A program made the translations under genes and the position numbers. Below are positions 25,501 to 57,965 of a stretch of 63,333 nt of DNA, piece after piece. This DNA is from a bacterium. GTDB taxonomy: Bacteria; UBP15; UBA6099; JAJRTR01. Every line of letters begins with the position of its first letter. Within the stretch, counting starts at the first letter, position 1. The stretch spans positions 1 to 63,333 of the forward strand of contig JAJRTR010000038.1 in the NCBI GenBank assembly GCA_024278215.1. The letters run 5' to 3'. The notes below the pieces were generated by a model, which did no database searches, had not been told where the DNA came from, and saw nothing but the letters and a program-made list of their open reading frames with translations.

Positions 25501-27190
25501 CCATGTTGTCGAGCTTGCTGCCGAGTTCGAGAGCGTATGTCTTCATGTTTTCCATCAACCCGGCCATCAACCCGGCGAGTTCTTTGCCGCTGTTGCTTTC
25601 GACAGCATTTTTGAGTTCTTCCATCGTCTTGTTCTGCGTCTGGAACGCTTCGGAAAGTGTGTCGACAACAGCGTCGACCGCGCCTTCGTTTTCTTCGTCC
25701 ATTTTGCTCGCGAGTGAACGGATTTCGCCGATAATATTTTTCGACACGCCGCCGAGGGCTTCATCTTTAAGCCCGGAGATGATCTTTCCAGCAAGGTCGT
25801 CGAACATGATGGCTGCTGTGTCGGAATCCAGTAGTTGAGACGCGCCGTCGGCTGCACCAAGTGCACCGGCGATACGGTCCAGCTCGGATGTAACCATCGA
25901 ATTTATTGCCTTCGTCCGCTCTTCGTTCCTGTTGCTGAAATCGAGAAGTTGTTTCTTGAATTCTTCGGTCGTTATAGCTTTGTCCTCGAAGTTTTTCACT
26001 ACCTCGATAACAGGCGCGGCAAGTTCGGCGGCCAGTTTCTCCGGGTCCGGTCGTTCTTCCTCAAGTTTCTGTTTCACAGCATCGACTGTTTCGTCCAATT
26101 TCCGTCCGAGCGATTCGGCAATCTCCTTTATCGGGGCGGTATCAATCTGCGGGGCTTCCTGTCCGGTCGCGGCAAGTTCGTCTGTTTTTTCTATCAGCTT
26201 ACTCAGCATGGATTCAATGTTCGCAAGCGATTCCTTAACATTGTCGATGGGAGCCGTCGCGCCGATCGTGATCTTTTCCTCGAGCAGCATCTCCATGGCG
26301 CGTGCTTCCTGGTCGAGTTCATCTTCATCGACGGTTTTTTCATTTTGTGCGCGGAGCGCATCGAGTATTTCCTCCTTGAAGCTTTCCAGCGACTGCGCCG
26401 GGGCAAAGTCACTTATCCGCTCGAGCATTGCGCCCGACATTTCCTCGAACAATTCCCTGACAGCGCCTTTTATATCGTCTGTCGTGGGCACCTCCGGCAA
26501 CTCGATTCGGGGCATCAACGGCGCGGGGATTGTTTCCGGCGCGTGATGCGTGGCCTGCATGGACGAGCTTTCGGGCATTGCGGCAACTTCAGGTTGTGAT
26601 GTTGTCGTAGCAGTCGGTGTCGCCTGCGTGGGCTGTTCGACAGGTGAGGTAGCAGGGGCCGGCTGTTGGGCGGGGCGAGGAGGTGCAGGCGCTTCAACAG
26701 CATCGTCGTCGTCGATTTTTTCTGTGAGTGCGTCTGCGTTGACGATGATCCGCTCCTGCGTGATTTTCATGATGTGGCGACCGGCGACCTTTTCCACATC
26801 CTTGTCGGGTATCAGCGAAAGCCTTTCGATCACACCGTCTTTTTCACTTATTGCGAAATCATGCACCGTTCCCATCAGCATTCCCGTGTCGGTGATAACC
26901 TGTGCTCCGGCGACTGCTATGTCTTTGAGAAAAGTGTTCAGAAGCTCCGGGACATCGGACAACTTCAACGGCGATGACAGATTCTCGGTGATTACGGCGT
27001 TCGAATAGACACTTTTAACATAAGAATACGGAACCACATCAAGCGAACTCTGCCCCTCGGCGGGTGCGAGTATGAAAGCTGTCACCCGCTTCTCGTCGGG
27101 CTCGATCACATAACCCTTGATCTGCCCCATCTTTTCGTTCTTGTCCGAATTGATTACCGGTTTGTTCAGCAGTACGAGACTGTAAACCAT
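22598..27190 (-). CDS. ~1530-aa PRC-barrel protein with long acidic coiled-coil body
   Basis: ATG at 27190 with GAGGGG RBS; two N-terminal PRC-like units (PVINSDKNEKMGQI; QVITDTGMLMGTVHD), Pro-rich linker, helical repeats, C-terminal LIGKRLKKDVADSEGNILAAEGE. Confidence 0.75.
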   Translation of the reverse strand: MVYSLVLLNKPVINSDKNEKMGQIKGYVIEPDEKRVTAFILAPAEGQSSLDVVPYSYVKSVYSNAVITENLSSPLKLSDVPELLNTFLKDIAVAGAQVITDTGMLMGTVHDFAISEKDGVIERLSLIPDKDVEKVAGRHIMKITQERIIVNADALTEKIDDDDAVEAPAPPRPAQQPAPATSPVEQPTQATPTATTTSQPEVAAMPESSSMQATHHAPETIPAPLMPRIELPEVPTTDDIKGAVRELFEEMSGAMLERISDFAPAQSLESFKEEILDALRAQNEKTVDEDELDQEARAMEMLLEEKITIGATAPIDNVKESLANIESMLSKLIEKTDELAATGQEAPQIDTAPIKEIAESLGRKLDETVDAVKQKLEEERPDPEKLAAELAAPVIEVVKNFEDKAITTEEFKKQLLDFSNRNEERTKAINSMVTSELDRIAGALGAADGASQLLDSDTAAIMFDDLAGKIISGLKDEALGGVSKNIIGEIRSLASKMDEENEGAVDAVVDTLSEAFQTQNKTMEELKNAVESNSGKELAGLMAGLMENMKTYALELGSKLDNMAKNAEKRHNKLAQDIDDQQTIIENSIRNLLESRIAHRMELEAQHAAELNEKIKKIESIISDISESVLKKEDLAPVRQWIDEFALGAEEKDAGKPDIEELLDKVKTEIIDAVGVASETGLKEENLSVIRQWLAEYAPAQPVEDENSVKVSHIENLRNELADMIAAIGGDNNTGADALAEIRQILGEVRQSLENTDSKNTVTEQLLGEAKQEIIGRLEMYLDNFIRKDDLESIRNRIDELMEKTATGAPTPAGVGIEHLESLKNDLLAQFAEFGEGALRKQDLEVIRGWLDKTTLYSATQSDMEDKETAGIIVEKISAFHEDLKSMTELMLKSEDIEKIQQEIMGYIAPEESADDAQPAGPSSAQGDAVDAETLEKLKAELIEAVRDATAASAKSEDIDGLRELMQNFAEKLPDGNSADTENITESLVDEINTVVDVLNTLTLDNREQLKTLDEKLTGKVEKLKQSVEEAISKIAAGTGSAAPGEATAVITEEQIGALREELAAAVTETVGDLLESAAVTEEVSLPGVAEIARMIDESIAGALQKSGGATTADLENIKTELLSKIDDAAGRLETKTEALTGGLRERLEESVSGYSDMAAGIREFLSQGAQFAGAASSDDITQLSDRISSQLDDLGRGINSTTGEKLDSMKIFTQENADRLMSEIESKLSETAPADDDATKEIISGLPGRLDEVRDRIIDEVGAKANDVTQNNADKINELRNSIEEMIGAAGGDPEETLRQLRQVIAEKSAELHDSLSDDIDRKMSEKLSDQAWAIKRSNENIEKTLKQLRESVRESLDAGLNELASMKDMDRLRERIEARVGDVIDNYVERIEDHLDRRDIEMEKGFKAILKNMEKLLSKGFRTDLESMFAGGGILSSLFGGQRPENPLKIASRSTARGSGVGPTRSQLEDTHIKRLAYLIGKRLKKDVADSEGNILAAEGEVVNEAMIRRLRDKQCTLQLIRNVDFSG

Positions 27191-27453
27191 GAGACCCCTC
27201 TTTTGCATGCTGATGCTTCCGGGCGTTTTGCATTCTACCGGAAACTCACGTTTCTGATGCGGCGCGAAAACCGCCCCTGTTCCTGCTCGAACTCCCCGGC
27301 TCGTGCATCGGGACTTTCCGGGCACGCAAATATAACAACGGCATTCCTGCCGGATTCCATTATAATATAGTATCCCTCACTTATGAACAACAGTTGTATT
27401 AACTTATTAAGATTCGCATAGCGCCCGAAGTAATTTGTCGTTTATGTATTCAG

Positions 27454-41991: not shown

Positions 41992-44523
41992 CTACTTCTT
42001 GAATCTCAATCTTGAAGGATTCGCAACACGCGAAGCGCTTGATATCGTAGCTTTCGAGACAGAGAAATTGATGCTCTTCGTAAATGTCTGCCCCGTGACG
42101 GATACCGCGTCGGGATCGCTTATCAGCGGATATAGGCCGCAGTAGTCCTGGTCCTGATCGCAGATATAATCGTCGTTGTTGCAGTCTGTTCCGGCCACGA
42201 CATAGTGCGAACCTGCGGGAATCTCGAAGACGGAGTAGTCGCCGCCCGAGATCGAAACCTCGTCTTCCGCTGAAGCATAGCAAGTGTCTTCAGTGCACTC
42301 GTTTTCATCGAAAGTCATAATATAAATAGTTGTGTTGGTGCAATCTGAAGGAGGCGTGGGTGCGGGCGCGTCGACCTGCATAGTGATCGCGATAGTGGCG
42401 GTGCCGCCGGTGGATTCAATGCCGATACTACCCGTGTATGATCCTGCGGCAAGACCTGTACGGTCGACTGTCAGAGTCAGAGTTATCTTGTCCGTGTCTG
42501 TTTCGGTGGAGGTCGACAACCAGTTGCCGCCGCTGTTTTCTGTGTCGAACACACTTGTGAGCGAGAGGGTTCCCGAACCTGTGTTGGTGATGATGACGGT
42601 TTTGCTCGTTTCTGTGTATGCGAAACTGACATCGGTAGATGATAGCGCGATGACCGGCGTGGTGGGCTCTGTCGGAGTCTCCACGAGCTTCTTCGCTTCG
42701 AGAACCGCCTTGTAGGCGTTGATGAGACCCGCGCCGAACACATCGTCGGTGCCGGATTCGCCGAGGTCGGTGGCCGTCTGTGTCATTATCGTTACTATCT
42801 CGGAAGGGGTTATCGCCGGGTTTGCCGCTATCATGAGGGCTGCAAGCCCTGTGGCGTGCGGCGTGGCCATCGATGTTCCCTGCATGGTACCGTAATCTGT
42901 ATCAGAGTTCGTAGCATCGTTTCGAACTGTACTGAGAATACCGTTATCCATGTCTGAATACTGTTCGCCGCCGGGAGCGACAAGCGTGAGTTCCGAACCT
43001 GTATTCGAATAGTACGCGTGATTCATATCCTTTCCCACAGCCCCCACAGCCACAATGTTATTGCAAAGGGCTAAAGGATTAAGATGTCCGTTTCCGCCTT
43101 CATCATACTCGTTGCCGGCCGCTACGAAAATAGCGACACCGGCGTTGAAAGCAGTGTCATAGACATCCTGCCATGACGAAGGACAGGTGCCCGGAGGGTT
43201 CGAACCGAGGCTGATGTTTATAACTCTGGCTTTTTCCGCCGGAACCGTGCCCGAATCGTTGGTCTGGCCTGCCGCGTAAAGTATCGCCTGGAGTATTCCG
43301 TAATCGTCGCTGCCGACACGCACCGGCATGATCTTTACATTCCAGTTCACACCTGCGACACCGATGCCGTTATTCGTCTCAGCGCCGATCGTGCCCGCTA
43401 CATGTGTGCCGTGATAATGCGAAAAATTAGCCGGGGAGACCGGGCCGCTCGCGCATCGCGAGTCAGATACATCCTCGGGATTGCTGTCGAATCCGTCGCC
43501 GTCGCAGCTTTCTTCCGCCGCCGCGAAGTCGTAGCCCGCCGTCAAGTTTCCGTCAAGGTCTGCATGTCCGGACACGATGCCCGAATCGACCACGGCGACG
43601 ACAACATCCGCGCTTCCCGTCGTGATGTCCCACGCCTGCGGGAGATTCATCATCGGATATTGCCACTGGCGGCTGTAGTATGTGTCGTTGGGAACGGTGG
43701 ACATGTGGCTCCTGATTCCGTTCAGTTCCGCATATTTCACTTCCGCGGCGTTATTGAGTTCTATACATTTTTCGACGGTACGCGCCGCAGCCGTTTCGTT
43801 GTCAAGGCCATCGACATCAAGGACGACAAGGGCCATCCCGCCCGGGCTCTGTTTCTTCACCGCGAGGCTGCGTGCTGCCGCGAAATCCGCGACCGGGCCT
43901 CCCGATTTAAGTTTCATTATCAGTTCGCCTGACTTGAAATTTTCCGTATCACACGCCTGCGGGACAGGCGCCCTGTTGCTGAACCGCACTTCACGCGACA
44001 GATCGCGCAAAGACGGCGCCGCTATCTTCAGCGGACTCGAGAGCGTATTGCCCGAAGAGGTCGGACCCTGCGCCGCCGCAAGACGCGACGAAGATGCCGT
44101 CACCGAGACCGATCCCTTTACCGCGCCCTCTGTCGCGCTTGCTCCGAAGCAGGTTATCTTCATCGTCGAGTTTACCTGCCCGCCGCGCCGGTCATTTACA
44201 TTTACTGTTATCTCATATTCACCTGTCTTGGTCGTTGAAAATGTATATTGCGTATCGGAAACCTTCACGAGTGTTCCGCCCGTGTTGCTCCATGTATAAT
44301 ATAATGTATCATTGTCCGGGTCGCTCGCGCTGACGGTGATTGTCGTTTGTTCGCCGTCTGATAATACAGCTGTTTTCGACGCGCTGAAGTTTGAGATTGC
44401 AGGCGTATTGTTCGGTGCAGTCGCCGCCGGCACGCCGCCGCTGCCTCCTCCTCCTCCGCATCCCGCAGACCACACTAATCCTGCACACACCAGACCTCCG
44501 ATAATACTTTTGAATCCCTTCAT
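41992..44523 (-). CDS. Subtilisin-like S8 serine protease lipoprotein with Ig-like/BACON domains
   Basis: Lipobox SAGC; VVDSG, HGTHVAG, AAGN, GTSMATPH. Confidence 0.92.
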   Translation of the reverse strand: MKGFKSIIGGLVCAGLVWSAGCGGGGGSGGVPAATAPNNTPAISNFSASKTAVLSDGEQTTITVSASDPDNDTLYYTWSNTGGTLVKVSDTQYTFSTTKTGEYEITVNVNDRRGGQVNSTMKITCFGASATEGAVKGSVSVTASSSRLAAAQGPTSSGNTLSSPLKIAAPSLRDLSREVRFSNRAPVPQACDTENFKSGELIMKLKSGGPVADFAAARSLAVKKQSPGGMALVVLDVDGLDNETAAARTVEKCIELNNAAEVKYAELNGIRSHMSTVPNDTYYSRQWQYPMMNLPQAWDITTGSADVVVAVVDSGIVSGHADLDGNLTAGYDFAAAEESCDGDGFDSNPEDVSDSRCASGPVSPANFSHYHGTHVAGTIGAETNNGIGVAGVNWNVKIMPVRVGSDDYGILQAILYAAGQTNDSGTVPAEKARVINISLGSNPPGTCPSSWQDVYDTAFNAGVAIFVAAGNEYDEGGNGHLNPLALCNNIVAVGAVGKDMNHAYYSNTGSELTLVAPGGEQYSDMDNGILSTVRNDATNSDTDYGTMQGTSMATPHATGLAALMIAANPAITPSEIVTIMTQTATDLGESGTDDVFGAGLINAYKAVLEAKKLVETPTEPTTPVIALSSTDVSFAYTETSKTVIITNTGSGTLSLTSVFDTENSGGNWLSTSTETDTDKITLTLTVDRTGLAAGSYTGSIGIESTGGTATIAITMQVDAPAPTPPSDCTNTTIYIMTFDENECTEDTCYASAEDEVSISGGDYSVFEIPAGSHYVVAGTDCNNDDYICDQDQDYCGLYPLISDPDAVSVTGQTFTKSINFSVSKATISSASRVANPSRLRFKK

Positions 44524-46421: not shown

Positions 46422-47525
46422 TTACTTCACAGCAAAGTAGGTGTCTTCCGTGAAGTGTGTGGTGGTGACACGTGTGTTGTCGTATACGGTACCGTCGATG
46501 GGATCCGGGAAATTGGTGATCGTGGCGCCGAGGGAAATAAACTGGTACAGTCCGCTGTCGTTGATTCCGACAGCTTCCCGACTCACTCTGAAAATCAGAT
46601 GGTTTCTCTTGTTGACACATACAACTGCTGTGTCGTCCTGCGTGAACTCTCCGCCTTGCTGGTAGCCGTAGAAGCAGGGTTTGACCATGCCGCCGGCCAT
46701 CTCGGCGAGTGGCGCGTGTACGAGAACTCCACCGGCATCCAGCAACTGTTCGATATCCGTGCCGCTCCCGACTTTGTCTTCGTCAATAATAACACCGACA
46801 TAAGCGTGAAGATCGGTCGGATTCATTGTTCCCTGTGAAATCTTGCCCTGGACAGCTATGTCGATGTAGAAGTAATTTTCATCATATCCGATGCGGTGGT
46901 CCAGAATATCGAAGTCGTCCGGGATTTCGTCTTCCTCGTCGTCGATAGGTTCTTCGTCCACGGCCATTCTGATCATGCAGCCCCGGGGCATTATGTCTTC
47001 ACATGCGCTCAGGTCGTCGCCCGAGTTCACACAGTCGCTCTTGCCATAATCGTTATTGAATTTTTCTCCGTCCAGCACTTCGCCTTCCATGAGCATGCAC
47101 GGTACGGTTGTGTACACGTTCTCGGACGAGTCGATAGCATGTACGAGATAGATAACTTCCGTGCCGCTGTCGAAGGCGGGAAACTCTCCATACCACACTT
47201 TATCATCATCTGTTTCAAGTTCGATCTGTTCCCATGTTTCCCCGAAGTCAGTCGAGTACATAACGTAAACAGTTGAAGTTTCATCTGAAGTTATATCCTT
47301 CGGGTTGTAAATTTCCACCTCGATATTGGTGGGTTCACCGGCAACAGGCTCTTCCGGGTCCAGCGTGATGCTGTGGAGTTCCGGCGGGAATCTTGTGGCG
47401 ATCAGGTCTTCGACCCTGTCCTGCAGGTCGCCGGGCAACATGCTGAGGTCAACGGCTCTTGCCGTGGTTCCAGCCCCCACCAGAACAAAAAGTGCAACTA
47501 ATAGTACTGACAGCATTCTACGCAT
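46422..47525 (-). CDS. Secreted acidic hypothetical protein
   Basis: Signal peptide; Asp/Glu-rich with several Cys. Confidence 0.8.
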   Translation of the reverse strand: MRRMLSVLLVALFVLVGAGTTARAVDLSMLPGDLQDRVEDLIATRFPPELHSITLDPEEPVAGEPTNIEVEIYNPKDITSDETSTVYVMYSTDFGETWEQIELETDDDKVWYGEFPAFDSGTEVIYLVHAIDSSENVYTTVPCMLMEGEVLDGEKFNNDYGKSDCVNSGDDLSACEDIMPRGCMIRMAVDEEPIDDEEDEIPDDFDILDHRIGYDENYFYIDIAVQGKISQGTMNPTDLHAYVGVIIDEDKVGSGTDIEQLLDAGGVLVHAPLAEMAGGMVKPCFYGYQQGGEFTQDDTAVVCVNKRNHLIFRVSREAVGINDSGLYQFISLGATITNFPDPIDGTVYDNTRVTTTHFTEDTYFAVK

Positions 47526-48904: not shown

Positions 48905-51457
48905 TCATTTATAGAAATTCCGGAAGAAGTCCAGCCTGTTCTTCATGGGGCGAATCTCCGGCCTGAAATCCTCCATTCTTATCGGGCATATCTCGCTGTC
49001 GCCCAGGACATCCACATATAACTGCCTGTATCCATAGCAATAATCATTCAGGGAACAGTCGGTGCAACAGTCGTTTTTATACATCCGACCGCTCACCCTG
49101 TGAAGATCGGGATAGCAGCGAAGATCGCCGCCGAGGGCGCAGGGCGGCGCGCCGCAGAAACCCGAGAATCCAGCAAAAGGAATTTTATTCCGATAACACT
49201 TTTCAACGGCTTCTATGACATGGCTTCGGATATCCGGGAATACAGGCACAATCCCCTTGTACAACAGTTGAGTATTGTGCGGCGCGGCAACCGAGAAAAC
49301 AATCGGTATGCCCCCGAGTCTGCCGGAAACGTATTCCACGAAATCAGGCAGCATTGTGCAGTTCATCGTATTGATAACGTGGCTGATATAAACGAAAACT
49401 CCACATTCGATAAGGTTGTCGATGCCCGCAATCGTTTTTTTAAATGCGCCTTTCATACCCGTGAGCAGATCGGATACCTGCGGATCGTGCGAATGCAGGG
49501 ACACGAAAGCGCTGTCGAGCCCGTTCCTGACAAGCGCTCTTGTTTTCTCCATGTCGTGGAGCAGGACAGCGTTCGTCTGAAGGCTTAGCTCCTCCGCTTT
49601 CACATCGTGCAGGAGGCTGACATATTCAGGGAGCCGTGGGTTCATTGTCGGTTCGCCACCGGTTATCGAGATAATATTTATCCGCCGGGCGGAATCGCGT
49701 AGCGCATTGATCTCCGCGAGTATCTGTTCATGTGTCGGATCGGGACAGGAGGTGTCGATGTAGCAGAAAAGGCATTTCTGGTTACACTTGAACTTCACCC
49801 TTAAAAGTACATCGTCGATGATCGTGTCGCCGTCGGAGCCGGTCTTCTCGGCTTTGACCACCAGGTTGTCCCGGCTGAACTTCATGCCCTGTTCCGCGTC
49901 GAGAAAAGAAGTGGGTGAAATTTTCTGTGAATACCTCAGGATCGCGCTCGCCTGATGTGTGTTGACGTTGTGCGCGACACCTGTGTGGAAAAACTTCCTG
50001 TACTCGGGCCGCAGCCCGAGACATATTGAATTGAAAGAGCAGTTGTTGCAGACATTGAACTTATCGAACATCGTTTCAACAGGATGGTCTACAGGCGGGA
50101 AATTGAAAAAGGAGAGCATTTTCTCGATGTTATTGAAAAGACACGGCGGCGGCGCTTCGAACGGGGCAAACGTGATAAGCACATCGCCGCCCACGCGGCG
50201 CTCGGTGATCCCTGTGAGCATACTCTCTATTTCCGCCGGCCCGAGCGGAAAATCTTCACCGGAGAAAATGGGCTGCAACTCGATCCTCTCGATGCCGGGG
50301 AATTTCCCGACGAGATATTCGATGTGATCGGTCAGGCCGAAAAATGTTGATCTCAGCAGTGGAATAATAACGAAAACATCCAATCCGAGTTCGAGCGAAT
50401 TGCCTATGGCCTCGAGTGACGCTTTGCATATACCTTTGCTCCGGCCGGCCTCGTCGCATTTTTTGTCGATGTGGCTTATCGATAGTACCCTTATATAAGA
50501 CAAACCCGCCCGGGCCAGTTTTTCGACATAGTTCATGTCGGCGAGTTGTATGCCGTTTGTCCGGATGCCCACCGAACGGAACCCCAGTTCCTTCGCAGTG
50601 GAAATGTATTTTATCAGTTGTTTGTTGACTGTCGGTTCGCCCCCGGTGAAAGTCACAGTGGGCGAAATAGTGCCTTTGATTCTCGCGATGTCGGACATGA
50701 TTTCCCTGGAACTTCGCTCCATTACCGTATCACCCTGCATGGGGCAGCAGAAGCAGCAGTCGATATTACACTTTTGTCCGAGATAGACCGAGCAGGGTAC
50801 AGCGCCGTCCGACACATCCGCCTTCCCGAAACACAGGTCGAAAGCTTTGTTGCCGAGTGTCGACTTTTGTTTCGCACCTGTCGGCGACACGGCTTCATCG
50901 GCGCATGTCTTATCCTGTACTTTCGCCTGTTTGTATCTTTCGATCTCTTTTTTTACACGTCGCTCATAGTCAACTGTTTTTTCGCAATCCGCCGAGCACG
51001 GAATATGGGCAATGTACTGGAAACGGCTTCTGGCGACTTCAGCGTTCATCGACTCCAGGCCGCACGAATCCAGTTTTTTCACGCAACACGCCGGGTACCC
51101 CAGAAGAATGCCGACGCTGCATGTATCATTTTCATAATCGGCCTCCATAAGTTTTTCCACATCCGCGCGGTCACGCCCGATGTAGAAAAGAAACTCGTTC
51201 CTGTAGTTTCGCAGGGTATCGTGTTTTCGTTCTTTACGTATCTTATTCAGTTGCGCGGCAGTGATCATTTTATAAAACAGGCCGTTTCTCTGAAAAAAGT
51301 CTTCGTATGCCGGGATATCCGGCTCCGCCACTTCGATTATGCCCGCGGGCCGTAGTCCACGCAACACTGTGAATATCTCCGACCAGAAATTGTTCAACAC
51401 GTTTTCGGCTTCGTCAGATGTCATTGTTGAATACACCTCCAGGGTGTGTCCACTCAT
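48905..51457 (-). CDS. DUF483-like domain fused to two radical SAM domains
   Basis: GILLGYPACC and HIPCSADC; CNIDCCFC/TGGEPT; CNQKCLFC/TGGEPT; CxxCx5CxG after each domain; ATGA overlap with the upstream gene. Confidence 0.85.
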   Translation of the reverse strand: MSGHTLEVYSTMTSDEAENVLNNFWSEIFTVLRGLRPAGIIEVAEPDIPAYEDFFQRNGLFYKMITAAQLNKIRKERKHDTLRNYRNEFLFYIGRDRADVEKLMEADYENDTCSVGILLGYPACCVKKLDSCGLESMNAEVARSRFQYIAHIPCSADCEKTVDYERRVKKEIERYKQAKVQDKTCADEAVSPTGAKQKSTLGNKAFDLCFGKADVSDGAVPCSVYLGQKCNIDCCFCCPMQGDTVMERSSREIMSDIARIKGTISPTVTFTGGEPTVNKQLIKYISTAKELGFRSVGIRTNGIQLADMNYVEKLARAGLSYIRVLSISHIDKKCDEAGRSKGICKASLEAIGNSLELGLDVFVIIPLLRSTFFGLTDHIEYLVGKFPGIERIELQPIFSGEDFPLGPAEIESMLTGITERRVGGDVLITFAPFEAPPPCLFNNIEKMLSFFNFPPVDHPVETMFDKFNVCNNCSFNSICLGLRPEYRKFFHTGVAHNVNTHQASAILRYSQKISPTSFLDAEQGMKFSRDNLVVKAEKTGSDGDTIIDDVLLRVKFKCNQKCLFCYIDTSCPDPTHEQILAEINALRDSARRINIISITGGEPTMNPRLPEYVSLLHDVKAEELSLQTNAVLLHDMEKTRALVRNGLDSAFVSLHSHDPQVSDLLTGMKGAFKKTIAGIDNLIECGVFVYISHVINTMNCTMLPDFVEYVSGRLGGIPIVFSVAAPHNTQLLYKGIVPVFPDIRSHVIEAVEKCYRNKIPFAGFSGFCGAPPCALGGDLRCYPDLHRVSGRMYKNDCCTDCSLNDYCYGYRQLYVDVLGDSEICPIRMEDFRPEIRPMKNRLDFFRNFYK

Positions 51458-53217
51458 TTTTTCAGAACCAGGAACCACTGATTGGCGGTATCCGGCGTGA
51501 CCGGCGAATGATGGACTGTTTTAAAATCGTGTACGCTGCGAATCAACCGCAGGGCGTCTTCGGAATAGTGGTTTCTGAAATGCTCATATACAGGTTCACG
51601 AGGATTCGCGGGCGGGTCCTCCGCGACATCTTTTTTGAGATTGGCGAAGATGCCGTTTTCAAAGATGTAAAGAGTGCCGCCCGGCTTCAGCAAATCGACA
51701 ATCCTGCGGACGACATACACAGGATCGCGAAAATGGTTGTAGCTTCGCAGCAACAATACGTGATCGTATACGTTGGGTGCGCTTTCAAAATCTTCGAAAT
51801 TCCTGTTGATAATGTCGAGGCCGATTCCTTCGTGCGGCCTGCTGTCGACGCCCGTATATTCGATCTCTCCGTTGCGCACCTTGCTCTCGAACAGGTCAAG
51901 CAGCACAGGGGTCCCACATCCGATGTCGAGCACTTTCCCCTCGAGCTTCCCGAGGAGTGCTCTTTCCTTTTCAACAACCCCGGCGTATACATTTCCCCCG
52001 ACCGGCACAAAAACGCACGAACACACTCCCGCCCTGTCGCACTCATGGCATCCTTCATGCAGTACAATCCGTTTGAAGGCGGTTCGGAAGTCCAGGTTTC
52101 TCGTGTGGCCCGCTGTGTTGAGATAGAGCTGTTCGCGCTCGAACTTCACCATCTTCATCACCGGACAACTGTAAATATCGTTCGCGACTTCGAAGATGTC
52201 AAGATTCCCATCAACGAGAACCGCCGTTTCCCTGTAACGATGGTGCCTGCCGCAGAAACTGGCCCCGCCGGGACATTCGCCCTGATCACCCACAGGATAT
52301 GAGCGTGTGAAATCGTAGCCGAGACTATTCGGCATACGTTCGCAAAAAGGGGTCGCATTTTCCGCGGAAACCCGCGCGTTCGCGCCCGGACAGTTCAACT
52401 GTTGCGAACAATGGAGACATTCTTTGAAATACTTTCCCGGTGTCGCTTCATAATAAGCCGGGCCATCTTCATCAGCCACACATGCAGACAGTATCTTTTC
52501 TGCGCAGAAATCCGTTCCCGATTGCCTGTGGGCGGGCATCACACAGGGAATAAAGCTGCTGCGGCTGAAGGTGATCTTTCTGCCGGGTACACACCTGTAC
52601 AGGTCTATTGCAGCGTCCACCGCGGCGGCGGCGGCAGCGACATCCGGGAAATACAGCTCCCTCATTTTCGCATCGGCGAAGTCATTTTCGGGCAGTGAAA
52701 ACATTATCTCCGAATCTGCCCGGATAGCGCCCGCGAGAGCGACGATATGATTCAGGTACTCGATATTGACCCGTGTTATTACAGTATGAAACTTCAGGGT
52801 TTTTACGCCCGCGGCAATGTTGCGCAGTCCCGCGACAGTCTGTTTGAACGAGCCTGCGACACCGGTCAACGCGTCGTGTATCTCTTCATTGTGCCCCGGC
52901 AGGAGCACCTGAACGTATTCCGGCTCATAACCGACGAATCTTTCAGCGAAACTTTTATATGCGAACATCCTGCAGTTGGTTATCAAGCCGATATTCATGC
53001 CGTGTTCTCTGATACTGTCGGCGAGCTGCCGGAAGTCTTCGCGTATTGTCGGCTCTCCACCTGCCAGGATCACTGTTGAAAAACACATTTCTTTCAGGAC
53101 CCGGATATTGTCCGCTATGTCCTGTGTCGACAACCGGGGCGCTTCGCGCTCCATAGTGAGCGCACAGAAAACACAATTATTGTTGCAACTATGTCCAACC
53201 CTGAGGATAGCTCTCAC
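51454..53217 (-). CDS. Radical SAM (HxsC-like) fused to a class I SAM methyltransferase
   Basis: CNNNCVFC, AGGEPT, HDALTGVAGSF, CLHCSQQLNCPG, CHECDRAGVCSC, VLDIGCG, LKPGG. Confidence 0.85.
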   Translation of the reverse strand: MRAILRVGHSCNNNCVFCALTMEREAPRLSTQDIADNIRVLKEMCFSTVILAGGEPTIREDFRQLADSIREHGMNIGLITNCRMFAYKSFAERFVGYEPEYVQVLLPGHNEEIHDALTGVAGSFKQTVAGLRNIAAGVKTLKFHTVITRVNIEYLNHIVALAGAIRADSEIMFSLPENDFADAKMRELYFPDVAAAAAAVDAAIDLYRCVPGRKITFSRSSFIPCVMPAHRQSGTDFCAEKILSACVADEDGPAYYEATPGKYFKECLHCSQQLNCPGANARVSAENATPFCERMPNSLGYDFTRSYPVGDQGECPGGASFCGRHHRYRETAVLVDGNLDIFEVANDIYSCPVMKMVKFEREQLYLNTAGHTRNLDFRTAFKRIVLHEGCHECDRAGVCSCVFVPVGGNVYAGVVEKERALLGKLEGKVLDIGCGTPVLLDLFESKVRNGEIEYTGVDSRPHEGIGLDIINRNFEDFESAPNVYDHVLLLRSYNHFRDPVYVVRRIVDLLKPGGTLYIFENGIFANLKKDVAEDPPANPREPVYEHFRNHYSEDALRLIRSVHDFKTVHHSPVTPDTANQWFLVLKK

Positions 53218-53597
53218 AATATTTCATTAACTCCGCAAAATGACGTCAAACAACAGGAACCGCTGAAACTTTTGACTGAAAATCATTATAACACAGTAAT
53301 CGTCGCGATGTGTGAAGGGGGAAAGGCGCGGTGTTTTTCCTGGAGTGCAACGACAGTGTCGTTACAAAAAATGTTGTATTAATATCTAATGAAGCGCCCC
53401 GGAGCAAACTCCGGAGTATCAAAATACTTGAGACAACTTCCGACACACTATATTTCTCTATCCATACCAAAAAGCGAAGAGCCGTATTTTGATTCGCGCT
53501 ATGCTGTATGATATAATTATTCTGCGTATTCCGGGCACATATTATACCGGTAGAAGCAGGTTTTCGTTCAGCCACGAATTACACGACAGGTGAATGA

Positions 53598-54734
53598 TTG
53601 ATGAGCATCCAACTGGTTCTTCTGTTTACCCTTCTGACAGCGGCGACGGTTACGGACATGAGAACCAGCAAAGTCAAAAACCGGACACTCTTGTTTTTCC
53701 TGATGCTCGGACTTGTTTTCTACGGTGTGCTCACGGCAAAAGCGCTGTTGACGCACAACGAAGCGATTATCTGGGAATTGAAAATAACAGGAGTTAACTT
53801 TTTGCTGGCTTTTCTCGTATCGTTCATGCTGCGAAGCATGAAGATATGGCCTGCGGGAGATGCCAAGACGTTCGCTCTCTGCAACCTGTTCATACCTCTC
53901 CATTATTACAAACACGTGTATTACAAATACTTTCCCGGCTTTACATTACTCATAAACATCTTTGTAATAGGCATTATCTATATCCTGCTGAAAGCGCTGG
54001 CGTATATGTGGATAAACCTCGAGATATTTTCAGGGACCGGGAAACTAAGGTCGGTCATCACGGAAAACTTCGGTAAGTTCAAAACCGGCTGGCCGGATTA
54101 CCTGAAGCTCTTTTCCTCATATCTCATGATCTTTCTTGTAATGAGTTTTTTCTATTATTACTTCGCGGCGGCCATAGAAAAATACCTGCGCATCAGCCCC
54201 GAATTCATAATTATTATTGTCTTCATCATTATGAAGCCGGTGGGCGATGTCATCAATAAGAACCTCGGGGGGATCAACCACGGTCTTTTCTACATATTTT
54301 ATTTATTGCTTGTTTTCTATGCGTCGGGCTGGTCGCTTGCGGAAGCTCAGTATACCCTGACGAGGGTTCTCGCAAGCTCGATTAAATTCATGGCGCTGTA
54401 TGGTATCGTCAACGGACTGGTTAAGTATTACATAACGAACACGCAGGTGGTTGTAAAAAACGTTGACGAACTCAAGGAAGGCGATCTCCCGATCCGGGAG
54501 TCGCTCGGCATTCTTTCGCACGAAGCGAGAGCGATGCTGGAGGTACCTTCCGAGGGCCTGACCGCCGAGAACATCGCCGTTATCCGGCATGACATCGCAA
54601 ACAGGAACGCCGGCGACAATTTGATTCATATTTATGAACCGATCCCGTTCATACCGATTATTTTCGCGGGCGTTGTTTTTACTGTCGTAACAGGAGTTTC
54701 TTCCGTAGTATATTTAAAAAATCTTTTCTTCTGA
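53598..54734 (+). CDS. A24 prepilin/preflagellin peptidase (FlaK/EppA-like, long form)
   Basis: TDMRTSKVKN (first Asp), AGDAK (second Asp), many TM helices, ELKEGD..., EGLT..., IPFIPIIFAG C-terminus. Confidence 0.8.
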   Translation: MMSIQLVLLFTLLTAATVTDMRTSKVKNRTLLFFLMLGLVFYGVLTAKALLTHNEAIIWELKITGVNFLLAFLVSFMLRSMKIWPAGDAKTFALCNLFIPLHYYKHVYYKYFPGFTLLINIFVIGIIYILLKALAYMWINLEIFSGTGKLRSVITENFGKFKTGWPDYLKLFSSYLMIFLVMSFFYYYFAAAIEKYLRISPEFIIIIVFIIMKPVGDVINKNLGGINHGLFYIFYLLLVFYASGWSLAEAQYTLTRVLASSIKFMALYGIVNGLVKYYITNTQVVVKNVDELKEGDLPIRESLGILSHEARAMLEVPSEGLTAENIAVIRHDIANRNAGDNLIHIYEPIPFIPIIFAGVVFTVVTGVSSVVYLKNLFF

Positions 54735-54755
54735 AGAATTACGCGAAAGAGAACT

Positions 54756-56318
54756 ATGTCACCGATTGAATTCATGGCAATGATCGAGCAACACACGCAG
54801 GCCGCCAGAGCGCCGTTTGCGGCCATTACCCTTTCCGTGGTCATATATTGCATATTCGCACTTTGGAAAAATGATAAGGATATTATTTCCGGCATTCCCC
54901 GAAAGTACATATACGGTCTGGCGCTCACCTTTGTGGTCGCATTCGTTATCCGGGTAGTAATCTACCCGCATCACGCGGGAATGATGAATGACGATTTTTA
55001 TAATATGCAGCACGCGAAAATGATACTTGATCCGAATTTTCATCCTTTTAATCCGTTCGAGAAATCTATCGGCTGGCCGTTCCTCCTGTCGATCCTGTTC
55101 TGGCCGCTGGGGCTGAATCAGTACACTGCCTACTTCGCCAATTCGATCTTCGGCGCACTTACGGTAATCCCGCTTTTTCTGCTTGCAAAAAGAACAACCG
55201 ACTCCAATGTGGGAGGCATCCTGGCAGCTTTTGTTTTCGCGGTGCATCCGCTTCACTCGATGTGGTCCATCTGCGGTGAAAACAATGTTGTCTCCATCTT
55301 TTTCATGGTTATCGCTCTCGCGGCGCTTTTCGGCTTCTTCATTCACCACACACACGAATACATTTATTTGTCGTTATTCTCCGCTTCTTTCGCCGCGCAA
55401 ACCCGGGTCGAGCATTTCATCCTTTTCCTGTTCATTCCCATAGGGATATACTTTCTGTGCAGAGCGCTTTTTTCTTTCAGGCGAATCGTTGCCGTAATGT
55501 GGATACCCGTCGCGCTCGCGATCCCCAACCTGCTCCACGAGATAGTGTTGAAGATGTCCACAAACTGGACTCTCAACGATACTAAAGGGGCTGTCACGGG
55601 CGCGAACGTGTCTCTGGATAACCTGGTGTCGAACCTCGGCAGCGAAATGATGCGAATCAGGAGCGGCGACAGTTTCTCCTCGCTGATTGTACTACTTGCC
55701 CTGGTGGGCATAGTCGTCGGCTGGAAATACCATAAAAAGATAATCGTATTTTTCGGGGCGCTGGGAGCGACGTATTTCGTCATGATCAGCCTGCTCTGGA
55801 AAACACTCGCTTGCCGCGAACGATTCTTCCTTTATACCGATGTCTGCCTGGTCCTGATAGGGTGCTTCGTGCTGAAATATCTTGTCCGGAAATATAAAAA
55901 GCATGAAAAAATAATCGTGCCGGTACTCTTATTGCTGATAGCTGCGTTCTCCCTGCATTTCCACGTTAGGAATATCGACCCGGGTTACGATTACTTCTAT
56001 TACGGACGAAAAATGACGGATGCGTTTCAGCAAATAATCGCGAAATCATCTGAAAACACAATCATAGTTGTCGGCGACCCGGCTCCGATACAGGCGCTGT
56101 CGGATATTATGGTGATGCTCCCGGATGTTGCGCTGGACAATATCGAAAAACTGGGAGATCATGAGGACCTTTACTACCTGTGTTATATACCGGGGGACCC
56201 TTCTTATGAAAGAATCAGGCAGGCATTCCAGATGCAGATAATCATGCCCCTGAAACTCGGCGTGGAGCTAACCCCCGACTCTTCAAGATTCGGGTACTAT
56301 AAAATCATACCAAGATAG
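54756..56318 (+). CDS. GT-C membrane glycosyltransferase (PMT/ArnT-like)
   Basis: NDD acidic motif after an early TM, GWPFLLS, N.IFGALT, AVHPLH, TRVE; about 12 TM helices. Confidence 0.72.
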   Translation: MSPIEFMAMIEQHTQAARAPFAAITLSVVIYCIFALWKNDKDIISGIPRKYIYGLALTFVVAFVIRVVIYPHHAGMMNDDFYNMQHAKMILDPNFHPFNPFEKSIGWPFLLSILFWPLGLNQYTAYFANSIFGALTVIPLFLLAKRTTDSNVGGILAAFVFAVHPLHSMWSICGENNVVSIFFMVIALAALFGFFIHHTHEYIYLSLFSASFAAQTRVEHFILFLFIPIGIYFLCRALFSFRRIVAVMWIPVALAIPNLLHEIVLKMSTNWTLNDTKGAVTGANVSLDNLVSNLGSEMMRIRSGDSFSSLIVLLALVGIVVGWKYHKKIIVFFGALGATYFVMISLLWKTLACRERFFLYTDVCLVLIGCFVLKYLVRKYKKHEKIIVPVLLLLIAAFSLHFHVRNIDPGYDYFYYGRKMTDAFQQIIAKSSENTIIVVGDPAPIQALSDIMVMLPDVALDNIEKLGDHEDLYYLCYIPGDPSYERIRQAFQMQIIMPLKLGVELTPDSSRFGYYKIIPR

Positions 56319-56351
56319 AGCCGGTTGCAATAATATGTTCGCAACGAGACT
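56318..56351 (+). repeat. MITE family 1 left-end fragment overlapping the stop codon
   Basis: GAGCCGGTTGCAATAATATGTTCGCAACGAGAC. Confidence 0.5.
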
Positions 56352-56402
56352 GCCGGCACGAAAAAGCTGGTGTCGGAGTCAGGCAGATAAGACGGTGAAA
56401 TA

Positions 56403-57965
56403 GTGTCCCGGAGAAAAACAACAAAGGACCAACACGCGTTCCTCTTTGGATTGCTCTATTGGACAGCGACCCTCGCACTCGTGTTTTTTATTCTCAATAC
56501 GGTTTCTTCCCATATTCTGGGAAAACAGGAAACTTCTTACTCGAAATACGACATTAAAGCCATCACCAATAACGGCGATGTCGACTACCTTGTCTGCGAC
56601 GAAGGCGGAAACAACTATTACTTCGATTTCTATTTCCACATCGTCAAAGACGCTTATGCGAAAACTATAAATATCGGCCCCGAGATTATCGACACAAACG
56701 AACCCGTGAAATGTGTGCGCCACAACTTCGATGCAACAAAAATAATGACCGAACTGCCTGATCCCGGACCACCCGGTCGCGACGAAAAACGCATCGTTTT
56801 CATCGGTGACTCATTCACTTACGGCGAAGCTGTTCCGGCAGGCATGGCCTATCCCAACGCCATGAACACCTACCTCGAACTCCGGGGCAATCCGAATAAA
56901 TGGAATATAATCAACTATGGAATCATTGGCGCGGACCTGCCGTTCATTTATAATGTCAATTTCAAACAGGCTCTCAATGTGTCGCCCGACACAATCGTCT
57001 ACACCTGGATTCCCAACGACACACCTTACCATGGCAAAAGAGCCGAATTCCTTGAATTGTACGATTTGATAAACAGGCGCAATCTCCGCTTGAGACTCAG
57101 GGGAATCCCTTTCGTCAAACTCATTCGTCTGCTCCTGGAAAACCGTCGGCTGACTTCTCAAACGCTGAAATGGTATCGCGATATACACGGCCCGGACAAC
57201 AAACAGGGGATGGCGGAACTCAGGGAATTATTTGCAAAAATGAAGGAAGAATCGAACGCGATTTCCGCGGATTTCAGAGTCGCTCTCTTTCCTCTTCTCA
57301 TCGGTCGGCCCGGCGATTATCCACTCGCCGGCGTCCATAACTCCGTCAAAGAAATACTCGATGAAGAGGGGATAAAGTTTATTGATCTAACCGACAAAGT
57401 ATTGGTTGAGCCTGCAAACGAGCTGTGGGTACACAATGCGAATCATCACCCGAATGTTAAGACACACAGGCGGGCGGCAAAAGCGCTCTTAGATTACCTC
57501 GGCATCGCAAAAACCGGCATCGAAAACGGCGGAGACGGGAAAACAGACGGCCCGGACATTTCGGAAAACTCGACAGCGCTGCCTCCCGTGTGCGTTGCTC
57601 ACGCGATGGGCGCGGCAGACTACGCTTCCATGCTCGACGCACTTACCACGGAACTGAAAGAATATCCTGCCGGCACCCGTTTCATCACCAATTCGGCGGT
57701 AGTGTTCGACATCGTAAGAAACAGGCTCTCGGGCAACATCTTTTTCGACGACGGCAACCTTACAGAAACAGAAACAGGCGGTTCGATCTTACAATGTATC
57801 TACCTGTTTTACATGGTGGTCAACCGCGACAATGTCAGGTTGGATTTCGCACCCGATTACATGAGTAAAATGACCTTTCCCGAAGGCTCGCTTTTCGTGA
57901 TACCCGTTAACCGCATCTTTTACATCCCCATTGCACATGAACAAAACGAGTGCGCCCACAATTGA
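56403..57965 (+). CDS. Membrane-anchored SGNH/GDSL hydrolase-fold protein
   Basis: IGDSFTYG, INYGIIG, PND, NHHPN. Confidence 0.8.
   Translation: MSRRKTTKDQHAFLFGLLYWTATLALVFFILNTVSSHILGKQETSYSKYDIKAITNNGDVDYLVCDEGGNNYYFDFYFHIVKDAYAKTINIGPEIIDTNEPVKCVRHNFDATKIMTELPDPGPPGRDEKRIVFIGDSFTYGEAVPAGMAYPNAMNTYLELRGNPNKWNIINYGIIGADLPFIYNVNFKQALNVSPDTIVYTWIPNDTPYHGKRAEFLELYDLINRRNLRLRLRGIPFVKLIRLLLENRRLTSQTLKWYRDIHGPDNKQGMAELRELFAKMKEESNAISADFRVALFPLLIGRPGDYPLAGVHNSVKEILDEEGIKFIDLTDKVLVEPANELWVHNANHHPNVKTHRRAAKALLDYLGIAKTGIENGGDGKTDGPDISENSTALPPVCVAHAMGAADYASMLDALTTELKEYPAGTRFITNSAVVFDIVRNRLSGNIFFDDGNLTETETGGSILQCIYLFYMVVNRDNVRLDFAPDYMSKMTFPEGSLFVIPVNRIFYIPIAHEQNECAHN

Follow-up and report, generated by a model that had tools for sequence, protein, structure and literature searches.

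We report the analysis of a divergent cassette of five genes in a window of 63,333 nucleotides, by which we mean the whole stretch of DNA analysed (contig JAJRTR010000038.1, here called C6, of assembly GCA_024278215.1), from a bacterium of an uncultivated order. Two coupled genes on the minus strand encode three radical S-adenosylmethionine (SAM) domains, a methyltransferase and a domain that resembles the family DUF483, and 380 bp away, on the plus strand, lie genes for a long A24-type GxGD peptidase, a glycosyltransferase of the GT-C fold and an SGNH/GDSL-like protein (Table 1). The five open reading frames (ORFs), the coupling of the minus-strand pair and the divergent spacer are as an original prediction, made from the sequence alone, had described them; that prediction went on to propose a single, undescribed pathway for the maturation of a pilin-like peptide. 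The gene content of the cassette, its conservation in relatives, the conservation of the catalytic residues of its peptidase and the family-wide link of that peptidase to clusters resembling the His-Xaa-Ser (HXS, or Hxs) system are established by the comparisons described here. The reading that we favour, with a probability of little over one half (about 0.55), is that the five genes form an accessory arm that lacks a precursor, acts in trans and belongs to an expanded HXS maturation system; it would serve HxsA-like proteins encoded elsewhere.

The HXS system, reportedly first described in silico by Haft and Basu in 2011, is represented in NCBIfam by TIGR03976-03979 in its canonical form and by NF038313 and NF038332 for parts of the HxsA4/HxsC4 type. 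According to a recent report (Li et al., Nat Commun 2026, PMC13128918), an antiphage function of the HxsD-HxsB-HxsC-HxsA system has been shown in Escherichia coli, where it blocks the entry of phage DNA, and 99.7% of the known HXS systems are found in Pseudomonadota with four genes. The same report states that the N-terminal cleavage of E. coli HxsA needs HxsB, HxsC and HxsD, that it is non-canonical and is not the ordinary removal of a signal peptide, and that the protease is unidentified (PMC13128918). HXS itself is known, and the cassette, being tied to this named system, is not wholly undescribed as had been supposed; what is particular here is a form that lacks both precursor and HxsB, is fused and divergent, and has added methyltransferase, GT-C and SGNH-like genes. 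A literature search, which did not cover the supplements of the HXS paper with their possible list of variant gene orders, returned no paper linking HXS to A24 peptidase, GT-C or SGNH genes.

The divergent cassette and its conservation

The stop codon of gene 1, TGA, overlaps an in-frame ATG (position 51457) of gene 2 as ATGA, and this ATG is more likely than the GTG to be the start of gene 2. The product of gene 1 carries a CxxxCxxC motif at residue 11 and its methyltransferase at residues ~423-569, with Pfam scores of 67.7 bits for Radical_SAM and 45.6 bits for Methyltransf_23, while that of gene 2 contains two Radical_SAM stretches (PF04055, 123.6 bits), the second of which is HxsC-like throughout, its residues 561-817 corresponding to positions 31-288 of the 292 of model TIGR03977. 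The operons divide by location as well as by strand: the minus-strand genes encode soluble Fe-S/SAM enzymes, and the plus-strand genes a polytopic protease, a polytopic GT-C protein and a membrane-anchored SGNH-like protein. Within the spacer, a sigma-70-like site on the plus strand (53489-53517) agrees with the consensus at 10/12 positions and has a TG extension, and is to be read as a consensus match only.

Table 1. Coordinates of the cassette features and of the candidate substrates (positions on C6 unless another contig is named)
Feature	Position	Strand	Description
Gene 1	51454..53217	(-)	587 residues; N-terminal HxsC-like radical SAM domain, Cys-rich middle, C-terminal class I SAM methyltransferase
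Gene 2	48905..51478	(-)	857 residues from GTG; DUF483-like Cys4/His domain fused to two radical SAM domains
DUF483-like domain	50855..51406	(-)	residues ~25-208 of gene 2; motifs LGYP-CC and HIPC---C invariant
Radical SAM domain 1 of gene 2	49919..50806	(-)	residues ~225-520; CxxxCxxC at 237
Radical SAM domain 2 of gene 2	48908..49816	(-)	residues ~555-857; CxxxCxxC at 565; C-terminal CxxCx5C
Divergent intergenic region	53218..53597		380 bp between the two operons
Long A24-type GxGD aspartyl membrane peptidase	53598..54734	(+)	378 residues from TTG; ATG at 53601
GT-C fold membrane glycosyltransferase (PMT_2/ArnT-like)	54756..56318	(+)	520 residues; polytopic
SGNH/GDSL-like protein	56403..57965	(+)	520 residues; membrane-anchored, N-terminal hydrophobic segment, GDS block
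Three tandem poly-His proteins	C37, L032:8016-10894	(-)	~277 residues each; between HxsB and HxsC-like genes

The term DUF483-like denotes resemblance only, the N-terminal domain of gene 2 scoring 16.3 bits and its paralogue on contig C37 24.2 bits against a cut-off of 25 for PF04467. In an alignment of seven sequences the residues G116, L119, G120, Y121, P122, C124, C125, H151, I152, P153, C154 and C158 are invariant. By hmmsearch the window genome holds two copies only, one on C6 and one in the Hxs cluster of C37, and such genes are also found in 18 other peptidase-linked loci from other phyla. In the window this domain is fused to the double radical SAM gene; the relatives encode it as an ORF of its own (177-192 residues), with its stop codon just before that gene. 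A selenocysteine, considered for the TGA seemingly inside the gene in genomes G003 and G012, was rejected, this TGA being the stop of the separate ORF. A structural model of the domain (pLDDT, the predicted local distance difference test score, 75.4) gave no fold match at E<=0.001, the best being 2guk and NleE, both weak, and a search of the protein Atlas gave no usable match.

On the plus strand the GT-C protein matches PMT_2 (PF13231) with 29.8 bits, over the cut-off of 26.1, and its sole solved relative by sequence is the protein O-mannosyltransferase TMEM260 (9rql, E 4.8e-4), a weak match to a very distant protein, so the donor and acceptor are putative; the two share the PMT_2 match, and the candidate substrate introduced below is Ser/Thr-rich. 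After the second hydrophobic segment comes an acidic DD pair, which may be the loop-1 motif of GT-C enzymes. The SGNH-like protein scores 28.4 bits for Lipase_GDSL_2 (PF13472), under the cut-off of 32.9, the Asp of a final DxxH block is not evident in it, and its best sequence match in the PDB has an E of 0.63. The domain assignments of the original prediction hold for the three radical SAM domains and the methyltransferase and, with scores over the cut-off, for the A24 peptidase and PMT_2; the DUF483 and GDSL_2 scores lie under theirs.

The same layout, in which a double radical SAM gene and a radical SAM-methyltransferase gene diverge from an A24 gene that is followed by a GT-C gene and mostly then by an SGNH-like gene, recurs in the loci L034/L114, L035/L118, L115, L116 and L117, which come from genomes G003 and G012 and from five metagenome contigs. 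These amount to five distinct versions, because the peptidases of L034 and L114 are 98% identical and those of L035 and L118 100% identical. The window peptidase is 42-44% identical to all the other cassette peptidases, which are 53-100% identical to each other and fall into two lineages beside that of the window, with 53-57% identity between them. Orthologues of gene 1 are present in all five other versions (34-40% identity); GT-C orthologues (30-37% identity) adjoin the peptidase gene in L034, L035, L114, L115, L116 and L118; and SGNH-like orthologues (36-38% identity) stand after the GT-C gene in L034, L035, L114 and L118 and on the other strand in L115, with none found in L116. Locus L117 ends inside the peptidase gene and is covered only up to that point. 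The cassette is real and is kept in three lineages of one uncultivated order, and the radical SAM genes and the A24 gene are supported as one conserved unit, which bears out the link that had been proposed between them. As a separate observation, the 12 nearest genomes are all of the same order and the next nearest share only the domain, so that this order-level group appears isolated among the genomes compared.

The long A24 peptidase family

The window peptidase matches the Pfam family Peptidase_A24 (PF01478) with 36.5 bits against a cut-off of 26.5, and with 40.1 bits in the search of the whole genome, where it is one of four such matches (C6, C205, C199 and C201). The C6 and C205 proteins are ~380-410 residues long; the C199 gene adjoins T2SSE and T2SSF in a Tad-type locus; and the C201 protein, which presumably is PilD-like, has an A24 match of 73.8 bits. 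A profile of the long family, built on an alignment that includes the window sequence, scores the C6 and C205 proteins at 407 and 378 bits and does not report those of C199 and C201 even at E<=10. Like the prepilin and preflagellin peptidases PilD, TadV/CpaA and FlaK, the window protein has the Pfam A24 match, the catalytic aspartates, of which the second lies in G-D-x-K, and a C-terminal PF-P helix motif. It differs from them in ~210 extra residues, forming helices and a small soluble domain, before the last helix; it shows no N-terminal domain of the PilD type, since Pfam reports no other domain in it; and it has no pilus genes nearby.

In an alignment of 22 members, D20, N28, N67, G87, D88, K90, P100, F112, P113, N120 and F351 are invariant, so that both catalytic aspartates are kept (D20, and D88 within A86-G87-D88-x-K90) together with the C-terminal PF-P motif. 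The protein, retaining the catalytic residues of the GxGD type, is a predicted protease. The best match of its AlphaFold model (pLDDT 82.6) in the PDB is FlaK (3s0x, probability 0.97, E 0.29), and the fold search gave no match at E<=0.001. Judged by its sequence, the window A24 protein belongs to a separate family and not to the pilus peptidases. The grouping with ordinary PilD that had been named as a test of the original prediction is not what we find. Neither T2SSE nor T2SSF was found on C6 or C205, nothing links the cassette to pili, and the pilus connection of the proposed pathway is not supported; the prediction itself had seen no pilus assembly genes and no precursor in the window.

A word-seeded search gave 19 relatives of the peptidase, and an exhaustive profile search 2668 cluster representatives at E<=1e-3, of which 722, almost all of 350-430 residues, reach E<=1e-30. 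From a scan of species-representative genomes with a degenerate pattern 259 relatives were obtained, and for the best 80 of these 259 loci the genes within +-10 kb of the peptidase gene were counted by tblastn with the proteins of the window genome. They are spread over Omnitrophota, numerous Patescibacteria, Myxococcota, Planctomycetota, Elusimicrobia, Spirochaetes, Clostridia and others. At least one HxsC-like radical SAM gene is present in 72/80 loci and at least three in 56/80 (median 4, maximum 9); several of the eight loci with no radical SAM gene are short or lie at a contig end. An HxsB-like gene (E<1e-50) occurs in 17/80 and an ORF with both a leader motif and (H-x-S)n in 15/80. Among 80 metagenome loci, which came from an alignment-based scan (a scan of metagenomes with a single peptidase sequence found nothing), a radical SAM gene is present in 61; for those no shorter than 8 kb the count is 38/43. 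The great majority of loci of the peptidase family are tied to Hxs-like clusters, and the co-occurrence of radical SAM and A24 genes reaches far beyond the cassette.

The clusters so revealed, which we call expanded, resemble the cassette in having the same long A24 family (full-length matches at 22-28% identity) next to HxsC-like radical SAM genes, which in the window are three domains 380 bp away on the divergent side, in the recurrence of DUF483-like modules and in an occasional GT-C gene (5/80). They usually have 3-9 separate radical SAM genes, often with HxsB and a precursor, in cis and on one strand, whereas in the window precursor and HxsB are absent, the radical SAM domains are fused into two opposite-strand genes, and an SGNH-like gene is added. 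In a group of Patescibacteria (Saccharibacteria, Moranbacteria, Colwellbacteria and others; L040, L046, L052, L096 and further loci), 6-9 HxsC-like radical SAM genes stand directly upstream of a long A24 peptidase gene, a large investment for such small genomes.

Hxs cores, candidate substrates and alternative readings

Exactly two proteins of the window genome exceed the HxsB cut-off of 370 bits, on contigs C205 (about 499 bits) and C37 (471 bits), and these mark its two Hxs cores. Its two long A24 genes are on C205 and C6, the C205 core having a peptidase of its own. The gene order on C205 is a weakly matching HxsD-like gene, HxsB, HxsA4, three HxsC-like genes, the long peptidase and then two PMT_2 genes; HxsA4 has 100 residues (69.7 bits, over a cut-off of 55), among which a leader and a hydrophobic segment can be recognised, as can (H-G-S)n-W at the C-terminus. 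This cluster is kept in G008 and G010, and radical SAM-methyltransferase fusions occur inside the true Hxs cluster of G008 (L027). On C37 a weak HxsD-like gene and HxsB are followed by three tandem proteins (Table 1), two HxsC-like genes, the DUF483-like gene and a further radical SAM gene, with no peptidase or GT-C gene in the cluster.

The three C37 proteins are the best candidate substrates of the cassette. Similar triplets are found in G003, G007 (two triplets), G009 and G012, and across 14 proteins from five genomes the leader residues P29, Y38, F39, E42, E43, A44, K45, G54, G62 and P67 are invariant. This leader resembles that of HxsA4 and is followed by a short hydrophobic segment, in a loosely prepilin-like arrangement; the remainder is rich in Ser and Thr, has about 25 invariant, regularly spaced His residues in H-x-S/N/T units and ends in H-x-S-H-x-S-W, and no peptidoglycan-binding domain was seen in it. 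The search for leader-bearing and His-Xaa-Ser substrates that had been suggested with the original prediction yields candidates elsewhere in the genome, on C37 and C205, and none in the window.

As in canonical HXS, the window has HxsC-like radical SAM domains, the genome has HxsB, HxsD-like and His-x-Ser proteins (on C205 and C37), and an N-terminal part of the substrate must be removed. Unlike canonical HXS, the window has no HxsA, HxsB or HxsD, its radical SAM domains, two of them in a single fused protein, score under the family cut-offs, and there are five additions (methyltransferase, DUF483-like module, GxGD peptidase, GT-C enzyme and SGNH-like protein); the candidate substrates are ~277 residues long with about 25 invariant His.

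The cassette is connected to proteins of the C37 type in part by co-occurrence. In G003 and G012 the sole long A24 gene is of the window type and the sole HxsB over cut-off adjoins C37-type precursors, and no HxsA4 was found in either genome; all cassette-bearing genomes of the order (3/3) carry C37-type precursors. Neither the cassette nor a strong C37-type match is found in the remaining 8 genomes of the order (G002 has one weak match). The whole pattern is suggestive only, because the genomes are kin. Further evidence is a complex model of a window-type peptidase with precursor residues 20-85, which scored 0.61 (runs of 0.59, 0.61 and 0.63) while the best of 3 for the controls was 0.00; a score of 0.61 was reached by 58/80 solved complexes and 2/110 mismatched pairs, counts that hold only roughly because the alignments of this analysis were used. 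At least 69% of contacts are shared between runs, the pLDDT of the partner is at least 58, and to the modelled interface the peptidase contributes D20 and residues 78-91 (with G87, D88 and K90) and 346-352, among others, and the precursor residues 34-70. The model supports a predicted binding of the leader by the peptidase.

Several observations weigh against an HXS accessory role. No protein of the window passes HxsB (TIGR03978, cut-off 370), HxsD (TIGR03976, cut-off 50 bits) was not found on C6, where whole-genome scans also showed neither an ORF with (H-x-S)x3 nor an Hxs leader motif, and HxsA, HxsB and HxsD are absent within +-10 kb of the cassette orthologues; HxsD matches are weak throughout the genome (38.1 bits on C37, 32.7 and 21.3 bits on C205). 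For HxsC (TIGR03977, cut-off 267.9) the 857- and 587-residue proteins score 113.3 and 77.1 bits, and for HxsC4 (NF038332, cut-off 500) 135.5 and 87.6 bits, so that the description of these proteins as SPASM/HxsC-like stands as a resemblance and falls far under the cut-offs for membership. Despite the low scores the HxsC matches rank among the best families for both proteins, HxsC4 and HxsC being the top NCBIfam matches of gene 1, and the C205 HxsC-like genes are under the HxsC4 cut-off too (161.5 and 149 bits). In a tree of radical SAM domains the window domains pair with a paralogue on contig C30, domain 1 also with its G003 orthologue, rather than with the HxsC-like genes of the C205 and C37 cores; because the backbone of this tree is unresolved, it cannot place the window domains relative to those core genes. 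The closest paralogues of both radical SAM genes, on C30 (L006:702-8071) and C196 (L007:1-10877), stand among genes for nitrogenase-like, GT-C/YfhO-like, PMT-like and GDSL proteins, the nitrogenase-like genes being either a fused NifH-NifD and one NifD/K-like gene or NifH and a pair of NifD/K-like genes, and no peptidase or precursor was found at these two loci. Among the 80 loci counted above, GT-C genes are few and SGNH genes occur in only two (2/80, both cassette orthologues). C37-type precursors are found in G007 (92% complete) and G009 (67% complete), which have neither a long A24 gene nor an orthologue of the double radical SAM gene, and the cassette is therefore at most optional. The co-occurrence counts are themselves weak because the relatives are few and related, and the complex model cannot separate C37-type from HxsA4-type leaders, because near relatives of a true partner pass such a test as well.

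A precursor in cis was rejected: six-frame scans of the gaps between 41.8 and 58.5 kb, the 380-bp region included, gave no small credible or precursor-like ORF, those of the gaps in the window-type loci of relatives gave no precursor, and the genome scans gave nothing on C6. The window does not hold a self-contained pathway, because it has no substrate, HxsB or HxsD.

The alternative that fares best, though we think it unlikely, is that the radical SAM and methyltransferase genes, with those for the GT-C and SGNH-like proteins, serve to build or modify a small molecule, for example a lipid of the envelope or a polyprenyl-linked glycan, the A24-like protein having a separate or structural role. 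This draws on the sequence of radical SAM domain 1, whose closest solved relative is the tetraether lipid synthase GDGT-MAS (7tol, E 5.7e-18) and which matches the NCBIfam family Tes with 115.7 bits, a further point against an HXS role; on the neighbours of the C30 and C196 paralogues; and on the GT4 (glycosyltransferase family 4) and Bac_transf genes just downstream in the window. Other fused double radical SAM genes of the genome lie in unrelated contexts, on C112 beside genes for EamA and a pyridoxal phosphate (PLP) decarboxylase and on C47 beside that for an LPG_synthase_TM protein, the latter a further point for this alternative. A small-molecule role thus retains some weight, because the radical SAM cut-offs are missed, 7tol is nearest, the tree pairs the domains as it does and the C30 and C196 contexts are what they are. 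It has to reckon, however, with a peptidase gene that anchors the conserved unit and whose product keeps both catalytic aspartates in 22 members, with DUF483-like and radical SAM-methyltransferase genes in true Hxs clusters, and with the finding that neither the downstream GT4 and Bac_transf genes nor the upstream genes are kept with the cassette in relatives.

Distinctly improbable, in our view, is a complete maturation pathway for a substrate unrelated to Hxs, whether pilin-like or another leader-bearing protein encoded elsewhere. The window and the five other versions do lack an Hxs precursor in cis, the radical SAM subtypes of the cassette do differ from the core HxsC-like pairs, and cassette and C37-type precursors are not always found together. 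Yet the peptidase family sits in Hxs-like clusters (72/80 loci), the pili have A24 peptidases of their own (C199 in the Tad locus, C201 being the other), and the DUF483-like genes of the genome are confined to the cassette and the C37 Hxs cluster; a scan of the whole genome for the leader motif, moreover, gave only the four HxsA-like genes and one implausible ORF on C78. Adjacency of the two operons by chance, with no shared function, we reject, as it is contradicted by the conservation of the divergent layout in five other versions, over three lineages, with peptidases of only 42-56% identity.

Farther out, the window encodes a saccharopine-dehydrogenase-like protein, a secreted acidic protein, a B12-binding radical SAM protein, an S8 protease, GT4 and Bac_transf proteins and a Ser/Thr kinase, the genes for which do not accompany the cassette in relatives. 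The acidic protein (46422-47525, minus strand) has 367 residues, is secreted and very acidic, has no Pfam or NCBIfam match and gives eight paralogous tblastn matches on other contigs. Paralogues of the 488-residue B12-binding radical SAM protein are very numerous, with tblastn matches on >20 contigs. An S8 subtilase with an N-terminal PKD/Big_9 domain (41992-44523, minus strand) lies downstream of the radical SAM pair on the same strand; it has a 49%-identical paralogue on C31 and is not kept with the cassette in relatives. A 1575-residue ORF (22598-27325, minus strand) has a weak PRC-barrel match only and apolipoprotein-like repeats. PADLOC (2023 library, older than the HXS paper) returned generic viperin-like matches for radical SAM proteins only and none for the peptidase, the GT-C protein, the SGNH-like protein or the precursors.

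A proposed order of events

If the cassette is an accessory arm of HXS maturation, its products could act on the C37-type proteins in five steps, all of which we infer, the methylation, glycosylation and acyl transfer on a peptide from the types of domain present. The first would be cytoplasmic: modifications beyond those that the core HxsB and HxsC enzymes introduce would come from the trio of HxsC-like radical SAM domains, from the methyltransferase fused to one of them and from the DUF483-like Cys4/His module. The precursor would then enter the membrane by its short hydrophobic segment, and its conserved leader would be removed by the long A24 GxGD peptidase. At the outer face of the membrane, the GT-C enzyme may O-glycosylate the Ser/Thr-rich core from a polyprenyl-phosphate sugar, and the SGNH-like protein may lastly edit that glycan, or an acyl group.

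A bolder version, which we offer tentatively and regard as rather doubtful, has the cassette export and process envelope proteins of a new class, ~270 residues long with about 25 invariant, regularly spaced His; here a dedicated GxGD intramembrane protease would cut a prepilin-like leader and the PMT-like GT-C and SGNH-like enzymes would glycosylate the radical SAM-modified protein and edit its glycan at the cell surface. Were this so, it would show what kind of protease makes the so far unexplained N-terminal cut in systems of the HXS type, and the product would be the first glycosylated radical SAM-matured protein of this type, perhaps a barrier to phage DNA or one that binds metal.

Under the broader reading of an HXS accessory arm, the long A24 GxGD family of the expanded Hxs clusters is a concrete candidate for the HxsA cleavage step. 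The cassette, in which such a peptidase is joined by GT-C, SGNH-like and extra radical SAM and methyltransferase functions without a substrate, would therefore imply that the tailoring of His-rich envelope proteins is modular and can act in trans.

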